Shown here piece by piece: positions 7,207 through 8,696 of a stretch of DNA of 64,000 nucleotides; position 1 is the stretch's first letter; every line of letters begins with the position of its first letter. Location: NCBI RefSeq assembly GCF_030013595.1, contig NZ_CP122768.1, one strand, 5' to 3'. The notes under the pieces were generated by a model that saw only the letters and a program-made list of their open reading frames with translations, was not told the origin of the DNA and did no database searches. The stretch comes from Escherichia coli (GTDB lineage Bacteria > Pseudomonadota > Gammaproteobacteria > Enterobacterales > Enterobacteriaceae). Both the position numbers and the translations under genes were made by a program.

Positions 7207-7920
7207 ATGGCAGTGAACACCGCAATTTTTAACGGCAAAGCATCCATGACCAGCGTTGAAATCGCAGAGCTGGTGGGCAGCCGCCATGACAAAGTGAAAC
7301 AATCCATTGAGCGCCTTGCTGAACGAAGGATTATTCAGCTTCCCCCAATGGGGATTTCTGAAAATATCAATGGGTTAGGTTTAACTCAAAAAAGTAAGCA
7401 TTATCTTTTCGAAGGTGAACGAGGCAAACGCGACAGCATCATTGTCGTCGCACGGCTTTGTCCCGAATTCACAGCCCGCCTGGTAGATCGCTGGCGCGAA
7501 CTGGAAGAACAGATCCGTAAGCCAATGAGCGAAATCGAAATGGTTGCCGCGATGGCTCTTGAAGCCGTTCGCCAACAGAAACGGATCACTCAGGTGGAAG
7601 AAAAAGTCAGCCATGTTGCCGAAACAGTCGAGCAAATTAAAAAGGGCACCGTTCGTGAGGGCTATGCCGGATATCGCCAACTGAAAGCGAAAACCGGTTT
7701 GTCAGATGATAAATGCCGCAATCTGGTGAACGCTTATCAAATTCCTACCGATACCCACGAGTTTATGACACCGGATGGATTGTTATCACGTCGCGCAATT
7801 GTTGCTGTGGAACCGTTTATGGCTGCTTTTTATCGGGTTATGGAGGAAGCAGAACCGCGAGGGACTCGCTGGTATCACCCGAAAATGGGGTTATTTCAGG
7901 TTATTGGTTGGCAGCGGTGA
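7207..7920 (+). CDS. Rha-family phage regulatory protein
   Basis: N-terminal Rha-type motif (TSVEIAELVGSRHDKVKQSIERL); start uncertain (ATG 7207 or GTG 7213). Confidence 0.65.
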   Translation: MAVNTAIFNGKASMTSVEIAELVGSRHDKVKQSIERLAERRIIQLPPMGISENINGLGLTQKSKHYLFEGERGKRDSIIVVARLCPEFTARLVDRWRELEEQIRKPMSEIEMVAAMALEAVRQQKRITQVEEKVSHVAETVEQIKKGTVREGYAGYRQLKAKTGLSDDKCRNLVNAYQIPTDTHEFMTPDGLLSRRAIVAVEPFMAAFYRVMEEAEPRGTRWYHPKMGLFQVIGWQR

Positions 7921-8329
7921 AAAAAAGCCGGGCAGTGGCCCGGCTCGCTCAACGTTAGTAAAGGCAACTTCACAAAAGAAGTAAGCCAGTAACATCCAAG
8001 AACATTTGCGTTAGTAAAAATACCAGTAAGCATATGAATGTTTCAAGCCTAAATATTGATTCTGCAATTTCGGGACGTTACACTGTCTCCGCACCTTATA
8101 AAGCGGGTGCCGGGATTGGAACCCCGGAATTGCTCGAGGCGATATACGACGCGCCAGCGTCTTTTTTATCGTCCATGCTCGCGCACGCCAGAATTATGGT
8201 GGGCTGGGCAGGGGAGCCGAAAGGCTCGCCGGTTTCCTTGAGCGCCGGTAGTTCCAACCCTGTTCAGTCCGCCACCAGCGAGCTTGGAACCTCCGGTGGT
8301 GGAAGTTTTTCACTGCTCAAGGAGGCTGC

Positions 8330-8696
8330 CATCATGGCTACTGTCCCAACTTCCCCATTTCTCAAAATCGAAGTCGTCAACGGCAAGGCCGTTATTTTCT
8401 CTCTGCATGTTGCCTGTCATTTCAAGCGCATGCACCAGAACATCGTCGACAAAATCGAGTATCTGAACTGCTCGCGCGAATTTTTTACCTGCAATTTCAT
8501 ACCGGGTACTTATCACATCTATGGTGATTCTCTGCATGGTTATTACATCACCCTTGATGGTTTGATGATGCTTCAGCTTGGGTTAAGTCTCCGCACAATG
8601 CGGTACTACGAGAGCTGTATTGAAGCATTCCATGAGGCAGAAACTAACCTGAATCACACCGCTTTCCGCCGTAATCAATGGGAGGTGCGCCCATGA
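8330..8696 (+). CDS. Rha-family regulatory protein paralogue (divergent)
   Basis: AAGGAGG ribosome-binding site before ATG 8330; Rha-like motif (SLHVACHFKRMHQNIVDKIEYLNCSREF .. ITLDGLMML). Confidence 0.5.

Follow-up and report, generated by a model that had tools for sequence, protein, structure and literature searches.

Positions 8053-8333 of the window (the whole stretch of 64,000 nucleotides of Escherichia coli DNA analysed here) very probably hold a complete and intact C4/IsrK antisense-RNA control module upstream of a gene for a Rha-domain protein. Judged from sequence comparison, the spacer between two Rha-type genes would encode an IsrK-like small RNA (sRNA) followed by a C4-type antisense RNA, and we consider it highly probable that this arrangement is placed to control the second gene. 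With the same high confidence, the module can be assigned to the class represented by immI of phages P1/P7 (c4-icd-ant), the immunity region of P4 (seqA-CI-seqC) and isrK-orf45-anrP of Gifsy-1. The matches to RNA families, the covariation within the RNA structures, the three-way covariation of loops and targets, and the promoter and terminator anatomy were all obtained in this analysis, as was the finding that 8034-8333 lacks coding selection whereas 8334-8696 is under strong coding selection. Processing of C4, the translational block, polarity and activation by IsrK are taken from P1, P4 and Gifsy-1, and so is the antirepressor-like or lysis-promoting role that the cargo may have. Phage RNA regulators of this class have been described in detail; the element is an unexceptional and intact representative and leaves the known mechanism unchanged. 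The features of the locus are as follows:

7213..7920, + strand: Rha1, a gene for a Rha/Ant-type regulator (Pfam Phage_pRha, PHROG 63, RefSeq CDS)
7925..7946, - strand: leftward hairpin resembling an intrinsic terminator, adjoining the Rha1 stop codon (terminator scan)
7953-7962 and 8009-8018, + strand: exact 10-nt direct repeat CGTTAGTAAA, with no function supported
7963..7987, - strand: second hairpin, GGC..CTTC-acaaaa-GAAG..GCC (compensatory change between spacer types)
8010..8046, - strand: leftward promoter-like site (promoter scan)
8034..8333, + strand: N-terminal 'Ash' extension annotated in the RefSeq CDS, obtained when the promoter, isrK, C4 and leader are read as codons
8056..8084, + strand: module promoter, the equivalent of PisrK and of P4 PLE (conserved hexamers)
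8091..8167, + strand: IsrK-like sRNA (Rfam RF01394, covariation, terminator scan)
8192..8279, + strand: C4-type antisense RNA (Rfam RF01695, covariation)
8284..8325, + strand: target sites a2 (8284-8290) and b2 (8315-8325) (inverted repeats I2 and I5, duplex energies)
8334..8696, + strand: cargo gene for a 120-aa protein made up of the Rha domain only (dN/dS, codon-position bias, Rha profile matches)

A search of the 7921..8329 spacer against the Rfam covariance models located isrK and C4 in tandem, both on the + strand. The initial annotation had regarded this spacer as non-coding and had raised the possibility of a promoter/operator set or small RNA within it, and in substance this was right, as the spacer contains a conserved promoter and two RNA genes recognised at the level of Rfam. 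Promoter prediction on the same spacer yielded the conserved module promoter and, in addition, the leftward promoter-like site. The module promoter is composed of a -35 hexamer, TTGATT (8056-8061), a 17-nt spacer and a -10 hexamer, TACACT (8079-8084), and the hexamers were found at the same positions in 19 loci, including Gifsy-1 and P4. Transcription would start at G8091; in Gifsy-1, the transcription start lies at the Rfam isrK start according to the numbering of the paper (PMC4825925). The IsrK-like sRNA scored 63 bits against RF01394 (cut-off 50) and possesses its own promoter and an intrinsic terminator, in which a hairpin at 8148-8161 is followed by six T residues (8148-8167, terminator scan). 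Across the isrK helices 98.4% of cells were paired, with four compensatory pairs, and the RNA carries the decoy sites a1 (8116-8122) and b1 (8132-8139). That isrK binds Hfq and acts in trans to activate the downstream gene is known only for Gifsy-1 (PMC4825925).

The match to C4 spanned the full length of the RF01695 model (positions 1-87) with a score of 84 bits against a cut-off of 45 (E=2e-16). The fold, in which a long closing stem surrounds two hairpins, was supported by covariation: in a comparison of 19 sequences, the window included, all 513 of the 513 cells making up the 27 pairs were paired, and 13 of the 27 pairs had undergone changes on both sides. None of 500 shuffles was as good, and slid controls paired in only 33-49% of cases. 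A processed RNA of approximately 80 nt in Gifsy-1, STnc1160, coincides with the position of C4.

Two recognition loops are presented by C4, b' at 8235-8243 and a' at 8251-8257. The former, TCCTTGAGC, is a perfect complement of GCTCAAGGA (8315-8323), a stretch overlapping the Shine-Dalgarno (SD) sequence of the second gene (AGGAGG, 8320-8325), which is covered by b2. The a' loop pairs with both a1 and a2, and the a and b complementarities are apparent in the window as inverted repeats I2, I4 and I5. The duplex energy calculated for b'-b2 was -17.2 kcal/mol with the loop alone; for a'-a2, it was -8.3 kcal/mol with the loop alone and -19.8 kcal/mol with an 18-nt stretch of C4 extending into the stem of the b' hairpin. 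The 20 loci compared comprised 10 distinct a and 16 distinct b classes of loop, and the loops co-varied with both sets of targets: cognate a1/b1 targets outscored non-cognate ones with no exception (0/20), and cognate a2/b2 targets did so in 17 of the 20 loci. Among relatives that are approximately 89% identical overall, the differences fell specifically in the a or b triplets. Moreover, the Gifsy-1 pairs G28-C162 and G31-C159, which were validated by compensatory mutation (PMC4825925, Table 1D), map exactly onto a1-a'.

The host of the module is an E. coli lambdoid prophage, in its early-right region. In 15 out of 15 diverse fetched phage loci, among them Gifsy-1, P1-like RCS47, ST64B, APSE-1 and Stx phages, the isrK-C4 tandem preceded a gene of the antirepressor, Rha or Bro type, and the tandem was also found in P4. 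Many relatives carry the module without an upstream spacer of the type seen in the window. An insertion sequence (IS) is present within a replication gene of the prophage, so the phage carrying the module may now be defective. When the sequence was read for LexA boxes and for operators common to the cI-cro region and the module promoter, nothing longer than a 6-mer emerged.

These features suggest how the locus would work. Transcription would initiate at the sigma-70 promoter at 8056-8084 and proceed from approximately 8091, and the majority of transcripts would end at the 8148-8167 terminator, giving a 77-nt IsrK-like sRNA with a1 and b1. Transcripts that read through would comprise C4 (8192-8279), the leader in which a2 and b2 lie, and the cargo mRNA. 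In P1 and P4, C4 is excised from the operon transcript by RNase P and represses the downstream gene; by analogy with these phages and with Gifsy-1, C4 of the window is probably excised as well. Its a' and b' loops would then pair with a2 and b2 and, with b2 lying over the SD of the gene at 8334, translation of the 120-aa Rha-domain protein would be blocked. Through polarity, the block would probably also lower expression of the downstream overlapping ORFs that lead into the replication genes. The IsrK-like RNA, having the same target sequences, could turn the cargo on either by competing for C4 or by remodelling the long transcript, and the hypervariable loop/target triplets would set the specificity of what may be an RNA-based immunity class. 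In the P1 model, free C4 blocks the ribosome-binding site (RBS). According to the model published for Gifsy-1, IsrK acts by remodelling the long transcript, and orf45 and anrP are translationally coupled (PMC4825925). On its sequence, the module of the window may follow either model.

Comparison with the three described systems revealed a common anatomy together with specific differences. P1/P7 immI (RF01695) and the window share the C4 fold, the complementarity of a'/b' to upstream a1/b1 and downstream a2/b2, the position of b2 over the RBS of the first downstream ORF, and cotranscription of RNA and target from one promoter; in P1-like RCS47 the layout is identical and even the first codons, MATVPT, are shared. 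The cargo differs, being Icd and Ant in P1/P7 and, in the window, a Rha-domain protein of 120 aa with replication genes behind it, and the host element is a plasmid prophage in the case of P1 but a lambdoid prophage with a LexA-like CI repressor here, with no C1-type operator evident in the window. The isrK-orf45-anrP locus of Gifsy-1 (RF01394; PMC4825925) has in common with the window the promoter, the 77-nt IsrK with its terminator, read-through into a C4-homologous region (STnc1160) and an antirepressor-type gene downstream, and its validated IsrK-orf45 base pairs correspond to a1-a' of the window. However, the Gifsy-1 locus lies after Q in the late region, whereas that of the window lies between rha and the replication genes; orf45 stops at an AUGA overlapping anrP, whereas the frame in the window runs on into the cargo; and the two cargo proteins are unrelated by BLASTP, which led us to reject the cargo as a homologue of AnrP. 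The P4 immunity region (seqA, CI RNA and seqC), which controls the left replication operon, resembles the window in its isrK-like and C4 matches, the conserved start of the cargo, the placement of the module upstream of replication genes and a Pfam 'Ash' artefact over the RNA. It differs in having approximately 100 extra nt between the two RNAs, in a CI RNA that acts mainly by premature transcription termination, and in a first downstream ORF that is Icd-like; the Icd-like match was in the P4 'cI' ORF, and none was seen in the cargo of the window.

The cargo gene is the first in a run of overlapping ORFs (continuing with 8693-8917 and 8914-9825) that leads into the replication genes. Both ORFs flanking the spacer match the Rha-type winged-helix N-terminal domain (PF09669/TIGR02681), the second consisting of this domain only and scoring just under the curated cut-offs: 29.1 against 29.9 for Pfam and 41.4 against 45.95 for TIGR02681, of which positions 2-107 of 108 were aligned; the Rha profiles were covered over their full length. 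A match to PHROG 518 'Rha-like' was also obtained (E=1e-13). The Rha assignment made for this ORF in the initial annotation is thus supported by near-threshold matches; its start is the ATG at 8334 and not 8330. Rha1 was correctly recognised as a Rha-type ORF ending at 7920. It scored 32 bits with Phage_pRha, above the 29.9 cut-off, and 159 bits with PHROG 63 'anti-repressor Ant', gave no match to the TIGR02681 profile, and is also a RefSeq CDS in the identical ETEC1732 sequence. The start assigned to it, ATG 7207, is directly abutted by AAGGAG (7201-7206); for this reason the start is likely GTG 7213, as in RefSeq. The description of the two genes as tandem paralogues did not hold. The two proteins lack pairwise similarity (BLASTP E=2.2), so paralogy is not demonstrated and we discarded the idea that they are duplicates; the second gene is better described as the regulated cargo of the antisense-RNA module.

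Besides the module, the upstream part of the spacer could encode a further RNA. A leftward sRNA of approximately 90 nt at 7921-8010, starting from the promoter-like site at 8046-8017, ending at the hairpin beside the Rha1 stop codon and resembling lambda OOP RNA in position and build, is a plausible candidate to which we give somewhat less than an even chance. The hairpin, which had been noted at 7928..7944, is real: the GCCGGG-CAGTGG-CCCGGC element occupies 7927-7944 and the extended stem 7925-7946, and the terminator scan counted nine pairs in this G+C-rich structure, seven of them G-C. A T-run follows on the minus strand only, which identifies the hairpin as a leftward terminator-like site. 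Its stem was identical in three relatives recovered by similarity search, only the loop being variable; the search pattern for IMG/VR loci itself fixed the stem, and these loci are therefore uninformative on its conservation. The promoter-like site comprises a -35 TTGAAA (8046-8041), an 18-nt spacer and an extended -10 TGgTATTTT (8025-8017), and both hexamers and the TGn were kept in all three of the divergent spacer types even though the sequence between them differs. The second hairpin (7963-7987) displayed a compensatory change between spacer types (CTTC/GAAG versus CTGC/GCAG), and one variant stays paired, through G.U, on the minus strand only. Folding of the candidate, from approximately 8010 to 7921, gave -34.4 kcal/mol (z = -4.3). 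Against these observations, the covariation is thin, coming from three sequence types only; the best Rfam hit was to SorX on the minus strand (19 bits, E=0.22), which we treated as chance, leaving the candidate with no Rfam match; and no target was found, as duplex folding over 20 kb of the window returned only long, gappy and unconvincing duplexes. A 12-nt inverted repeat (7913-7924/8306-8317) is also present; it is absent from relatives with other upstream genes, and we therefore took it to be a chance occurrence.

A second question is whether the RNA module doubles as a translated leader in the manner of Gifsy-1 orf45, with ribosomes starting at AUG 8196 or AUG 8175, so that a Rha protein extended at its N terminus is made or the RBS of the cargo is opened. 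Such dual use would be compatible with the RNA module and not exclusive of it, but we regard it as rather unlikely. The AUG at 8196 (C4 positions 5-7) was invariant in all 19 sequences. Of 20 loci, 17 have it in frame with the ATG of the cargo and 12 have it fused to the cargo. Its counterpart in Gifsy-1 is the first AUG of orf45, an ORF that is translated and on which expression of anrP depends (PMC4825925). However, this AUG belongs to the conserved closing stem of C4, so that its invariance is explicable without coding; in 8 of the 20 loci the end of the leader ORF varies between -95 and +61 nt from the cargo ATG; conservation is lacking at the amino-acid level (see also PMC4825925); and no SD precedes either 8175 or 8196. 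Since the frame from AUG 8196 continues into the cargo with no intervening stop, ribosomes may nevertheless translate the RNA region to some extent and give an N-terminally extended protein.

The initial annotation had drawn attention to the hairpin and the CGTTAGTAAA direct repeats when suggesting that the spacer could contain a promoter/operator set; in this reading, they would form such a set for the second Rha gene. Both elements are present, the leftward -10 and start region is overlapped by the second copy of the repeat, and there are divergent promoters close by. The exact 10-nt repeat was found approximately 8 nt away from the positions first given for it, and it barely exceeds chance: five matches with at most one mismatch occurred in the window where 2.3 were expected, and 10 of 100 shuffles equalled that number. 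Two other spacer types retain the hairpins and promoters but have unrelated sequence in place of the repeat, and, as mentioned above, many relatives possess the module with no such spacer at all. We consequently rejected the repeats as operators and consider an operator set built on them very improbable; the dominant features of the spacer are isrK and C4, which the initial annotation had not noticed.

A conserved protein-coding gene in the 7921..8329 region of relatives would speak against an RNA module, and on paper such a gene exists. RefSeq annotates 8034..8696 as a single 'ash family protein', and Pfam PF10554 (Phage_ASH) matched the 8034 ORF with 60.5 bits (cut-off 26). On inspection, this gene did not withstand scrutiny. 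The PF10554 match (aa 16-107, nt 8079-8354) falls on isrK, C4 and the leader. For 8034-8333, the dN/dS values were 1.16 and 0.84, and the differences by codon position (8/8/6 and 14/12/9) showed no third-position bias; in 18 sequences, the variable columns were distributed over the three codon positions as 9/10/4 in isrK and 27/22/20 in the spacer, C4 and leader. The corresponding values for the cargo at 8334-8696 were a dN/dS of 0.07-0.10 and 18/14/49 variable columns. The 8034 frame was open in all 18 close homologues and in 9 of 16 diverse loci; in the other 7 it was broken, including Gifsy-1 and the P1-like phage, and indels of 1, 2 and 4 nt were observed inside the 'Ash' domain region. 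The ATG at 8034 has no Shine-Dalgarno sequence, as the initial annotation had pointed out when it found no credible ORF in the spacer, and it lies upstream of the conserved promoter. In P4, the Pfam 'Ash' model matched the obsolete 'cI' ORF over the CI RNA, which is described as an untranslated processed RNA (PMC4825925), and not epsilon; in the Pfam copy used, the helper-derepression protein epsilon is PF25738. These patterns of substitution indicate that 8034-8333 is not a real coding region and that only 8334..8696 evolves as a gene.

Hence, despite an ORF open for 220 codons, the high PF10554 score, fused ORFs annotated in RefSeq and several GenBank phage records, and the inclusion of the 8034-8333 region in PHROGs 995, 821 and 3960, the notion that 8034..8696 encodes one 220-aa protein with a genuine N-terminal 'Ash' domain and a Rha domain, the RNA matches being incidental, is scarcely credible in view of a dN/dS of approximately 1 unlike that of the C-terminal part, the frame interruptions that extend to the experimentally studied Gifsy-1, the indels, the unsupported start codon and the P4 match. 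Instead, PF10554, the NCBI 'ash family protein' and parts of several PHROGs probably represent a conceptual translation of the IsrK-C4 module and no protein domain.

A widely propagated annotation, in which 'ash family protein' or Ash is fused to Rha or Ant, thus overlies two curated RNA genes and fails the coding test, and the true gene at this locus is the 120-aa ORF at 8334. Of 5426 complete genomes, 928 were matched by a query that included this region, and every match listed carried a CDS named 'ash family protein'. If Ash is indeed a translation of RNA, hundreds of E. coli annotations would be affected, and the 'Rha/Ash' proteins of Eru-type Stx phages, which have been listed as of function unknown (PMC8951638), would mislabel an RNA immunity switch, and so would PF10554 where it serves to mark P4 epsilon. 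The literatures on P1 c4, P4 CI and Gifsy-1 IsrK are linked through one anatomy, and RNA specificity classes are suggested in the replication-region types of Shiga-toxin phages. Given the many specificity classes (10 a by 16 b in 20 loci) and a site directly upstream of the replication genes, the module may sort Stx and other lambdoid prophages into heteroimmunity groups that are RNA-based.

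An Rfam covariance-model scan of 6400-9400 identified two RNA genes, isrK and a C4 antisense RNA, within the spacer between two Rha-type genes, where the initial annotation had suspected a promoter/operator set or a small RNA, and a gathering-threshold scan of the entire window found both again. The surrounding DNA belongs to a lambdoid prophage of the E. coli chromosome, within its early-right region, and window positions 7900-8700 are 100% identical to E. coli ETEC1732. The features are as follows:

5703-6395, minus strand: S24/LexA-like CI repressor
Between the CI repressor and the bssS-family gene (gene order): Cro/YdaS-like gene
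6842-7093, minus strand: bssS-family (biofilm regulator) gene, between cro and rha
End at 7920: Rha-type gene (Rha1)
7946-7925, minus strand: strong terminator-like hairpin, abutting the Rha1 stop codon
7963-7987, minus strand: second hairpin, kept in three spacer types
8025-8017, minus strand: extended -10 TGnTATxTT, kept in three spacer types
8046-8041, minus strand: leftward -35 TTGAAA, kept in three spacer types
8056-8061 (-35) and 8079-8084 (-10), plus strand: module promoter, hexamers conserved across loci
8091-8167, plus strand: isrK, Rfam 63 bits vs gathering score 50
8148-8161, plus strand: stem of the isrK intrinsic terminator, followed by six T (terminator scan)
8192-8279, plus strand: C4 antisense RNA, Rfam 84 bits vs gathering score 45, E=2e-16
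End at 8696: ORF 3' of the spacer (the cargo, Rha2)
8693-8917 and 8914-9825: overlapping ORFs (HTH_36, replication type), 3' of the cargo

Fifteen diverse phage loci, including Gifsy-1, P1-like RCS47, ST64B, the Hamiltonella phage APSE-1, several Stx phages and other lambdoid phages, were fetched by nucleotide similarity with ORFs disregarded. In all 15 the isrK-C4 tandem is present, and the gene directly 3' of it is of antirepressor, Rha or Bro-N type; the tandem also occurs in the satellite phage P4, at the CI RNA. The three-helix Rfam structure of C4 has 27 pairs; standard pairs occupied 513/513 sequence-by-pair cells among 19 sequences including the window, with changes on both sides in 13 of the pairs. 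None of 500 shuffles reached any observed measure of C4 pairing, and sliding the 3' partners left 33-49% paired. For the two 5' helices of isrK, 98.4% of cells were paired, with four compensatory pairs. The window module (promoter, IsrK-like sRNA, C4 and leader, 8053-8333) is a typical, intact member of the Rfam families C4 and isrK.

The C4 recognition loops match sites both in isrK (a1, b1) and in the leader before the cargo (a2, b2). The b' hairpin loop, TCCTTGAGC (8235-8243), is a perfect complement of GCTCAAGGA at 8315-8323, and the duplex reaches 8325 via G.U pairs, thereby covering the AGGAGG Shine-Dalgarno sequence (8320-8325), which lies eight bases 5' of ATG 8334; a further partner of b' is GCTCGAGG at 8132-8139 (b1). 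The a' loop, GTTCCAA (8251-8257), is complementary to TTGGAAC at 8284-8290 (a2) and at 8116-8122 (a1), the latter within the second isrK hairpin. In 20 loci the a loop occurs in 10 versions and the b loop in 16. Without exception, a1 and b1 fit the C4 of their own locus better than any C4 with another loop, and a2 and b2 do so in 17/20 loci. Differences between the window and two relatives (overall identity about 89% for one, somewhat lower for the other) fall precisely on the a/b triplets: one relative has a1, a' and a2 changed together, and the other additionally b1, b' and b2. Such three-way covariation is the hallmark of the P1/P7 c4 system, where heteroimmunity is determined by c4 RNA through complementary sites located around the ant operon's ribosome-binding site (summarized in PMC12197685).

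A conserved protein-coding gene in the spacer, which the initial annotation had taken as the evidence that would overturn its non-coding reading, does exist on paper: RefSeq presents 8034..8696 as a single 220-aa "ash family protein", and its residues 16-107 score 60.5 bits against Pfam PF10554 (Phage_ASH). Five observations argue against it: (i) against two close relatives, 8034-8333 showed dN/dS of 1.16 and 0.84, with 8/8/6 and 14/12/9 differences at codon positions 1/2/3, compared with 0.07 and 0.10, and 2/5/18 and 5/6/24, for 8334-8696; (ii) among 18 distinct close homologues, variable columns at codon positions 1/2/3 numbered 9/10/4 in isrK and 27/22/20 in the spacer, C4 and leader, compared with 18/14/49 in 8334-8696; (iii) stop codons break the 8034 frame in 7/16 diverse loci, Gifsy-1, the P1-like phage and APSE-1 among them, and indels of 1, 2 and 4 nt occur in the b' loop; (iv) ATG 8034 lies 5' of the module promoter's own -35 and, as had been noted before and is borne out by the sequence, lacks a Shine-Dalgarno; and (v) in P4 (L017 8168-8584, minus strand), the PF10554 match falls in the obsolete "cI gene product" ORF, exactly over the CI RNA (Rfam C4 match). 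The C-terminal part of that ORF is Icd-like (NF033153), P4 CI is described as an RNA that arises by processing of a transcript that is not translated (PMC4825925), and the real helper-derepression protein of P4, epsilon, matches a different family, PF25738. The authors of the Gifsy-1 work likewise found the orf45 region conserved in nucleotides, not amino acids, and the frame fused to anrP in one Shigella (PMC4825925). On these five grounds, the 8034..8333 extension is not a gene, and the real gene is ATG 8334..8696.

Past its sixth to tenth codon, the cargo varies among the phage loci compared (L002-L020), being Rha, Ant, Bro-N or Icd. In the window it is a 120-aa ORF covering the whole Rha model at scores just under the curated cut-offs (Pfam 29.1 vs 29.9; TIGR02681 41.4 vs 45.95 over positions 2-107 of 108), with PHROG 518 "Rha-like" at E=1e-13. 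Rha1 is above the Pfam cut-off (32 vs 29.9), and its best match is a PHROG family of Ant antirepressors. The two had been described as tandem paralogues; pairwise comparison gave no similarity (E=2.2), and they appear to share a domain superfamily but are not demonstrable paralogues. Nucleotide similarity to other phages runs from ~8053 (the promoter -35) to ~8350-8365, about the sixth to tenth cargo codon, and DNA-level conservation of the leader and of the first six cargo codons (MATVPT) reaches as far as the P1-like phage and P4, where the ORF after MATVPT continues as Icd-like. From promoter to first few codons, the module behaves as a cassette attached to varying cargos.

A -10 hexamer (TACACT, TATATT, TATGCT, TATAGT or CATAGT) was located seven bases 5' of the isrK start in all loci, with a -35 hexamer (TTGATT, TTGACA or similar) seventeen bases 5' of it. 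The published Gifsy-1 numbering, which places the orf45 AUGs at 107 and 119-121 and has its stop overlapping the anrP AUG (PMC4825925), fits only if transcription starts at the Rfam isrK start; hence, the window transcript would begin at G8091. In Gifsy-1 the short leader orf45 is translated and is required for anrP translation (PMC4825925). It starts within the 5' strand of C4, at an AUG that is invariant and lies at 8196 in the window. From there the frame runs stop-free into the cargo, as it does in 12/20 loci; in the other 8/20 it stops -95 to +61 nt relative to the cargo ATG. Since this frame is open and orf45 is translated, ribosomes may read through the RNA region and produce a leader or an N-terminal extension; amino-acid conservation across the RNA region gave no support for either.

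The hairpin reported at the start of the spacer (GCCGGG/CCCGGC) is present at 7927-7944 and is kept in three relatives found by similarity, in which the loop alone differs; 80 IMG/VR loci were fetched with a stem-fixing pattern and therefore provide no independent evidence on stem conservation. Seven A precede it on the plus strand and seven T follow it on the minus strand only, which argues for a leftward terminator. The direct repeat is real as an exact 10-nt CGTTAGTAAA at 7953-7962 and 8009-8018, about 8 nt from the reported positions; as a functional element it did not hold up, being close to chance expectation and missing from other spacer types. All three divergent spacer types keep a leftward -35, an 18-nt spacer, the extended -10 and the second hairpin, whose stem shows a compensatory change (CTTC/GAAG to CTGC/GCAG) and, in one variant, is paired as G.U on the minus strand only. 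The conserved promoter-like site, this hairpin and the leftward terminator together suggest a candidate leftward sRNA of ~90 nt (~8010 to 7921; fold z = -4.3), a hypothesis drawn from three sequence types. It matched no known Rfam family in 7921-8046, minus strand, and is reminiscent in position of lambda OOP RNA.

Several neighbouring features were also recorded. The bssS-family gene has its own terminator-like site (6813-6785) and looks like an inserted moron, because in the related phages L018-L020 cro directly precedes rha. A terminator-like hairpin and T-run on the plus strand (7097-7112), just 5' of Rha1, would halt rightward cro transcripts before rha, implying a separate Rha1 promoter in 7113-7200. 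Downstream, a 1307-bp IS3-family insertion (9922-11228; transposase ORFs 9964-10854 and 10851-11177, minus strand; ALIL frameshift pseudoknot 10780-10896), missing from the otherwise near-identical ETEC1732 prophage, disrupts a DnaC-like ATP-binding replication gene; hence the prophage may be replication-defective. Elsewhere, Rfam matched a tRNA-like sequence (17364-17436, 45.9 bits) adjoining tRNA-Gly (17443-17517), of which ARAGORN gave only tRNA-Gly, as well as IS009 RNA (42636-42834), the tmRNA gene ssrA (43396-43758) and a Phe leader (61629-61754).

The anatomy, covariation and coding test come from the present analysis, and the remaining mechanism is modelled on P1/P7, P4 and Gifsy-1. 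Most RNAs initiated at the module promoter would end as IsrK-like sRNA, and read-through would give C4, which would pair with a2 and b2 and occlude the ribosome-binding site of the Rha-domain gene. As the downstream ORFs overlap (ATGA 8693-8696; GTGA 8914-8917) and lead into replication genes, DnaC-like and DnaB-like in ETEC1732, the block may also lower their expression by polarity, like P4 CI RNA on the P4 replication operon. The IsrK-like RNA, carrying the same target sequences as the leader, could switch the cargo on, either by titrating C4 or by remodelling the long transcript. In Gifsy-1, IsrK is reported to have this effect, with a 139-fold rise in anrP translation, and the pairs G28-C162 and G31-C159 were validated by compensatory mutation (PMC4825925); both map exactly onto a1-a'.

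The module belongs to the class of P1 immI, P4 immunity and Gifsy-1 isrK, and its mechanism is not new. It differs from these in that (i) the cargo is a short Rha-domain-only protein, (ii) the module lies directly 5' of a non-lambda replication module of the "Eru" kind of Stx phages, and (iii) leader and cargo share one continuous frame. A classification of this Stx phage region lists "Rha/Ash domain" proteins of unknown function, the RNAs going unmentioned (PMC8951638), and PF10554 served as the epsilon marker in a survey of P4-like satellites (PMC8628076); in the Pfam copy used here, it is not epsilon that PF10554 matches but the ORF lying over the CI RNA. PHROG 995, 821, 3960 and 6928 ('transcriptional regulator/repressor'), which are matched by window 8034-8333, contain the RNA-derived stretch as their N-terminal part, so the annotation artefact is no longer confined to Pfam and NCBI names. 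This consequence for annotation is the most useful outcome of the analysis.
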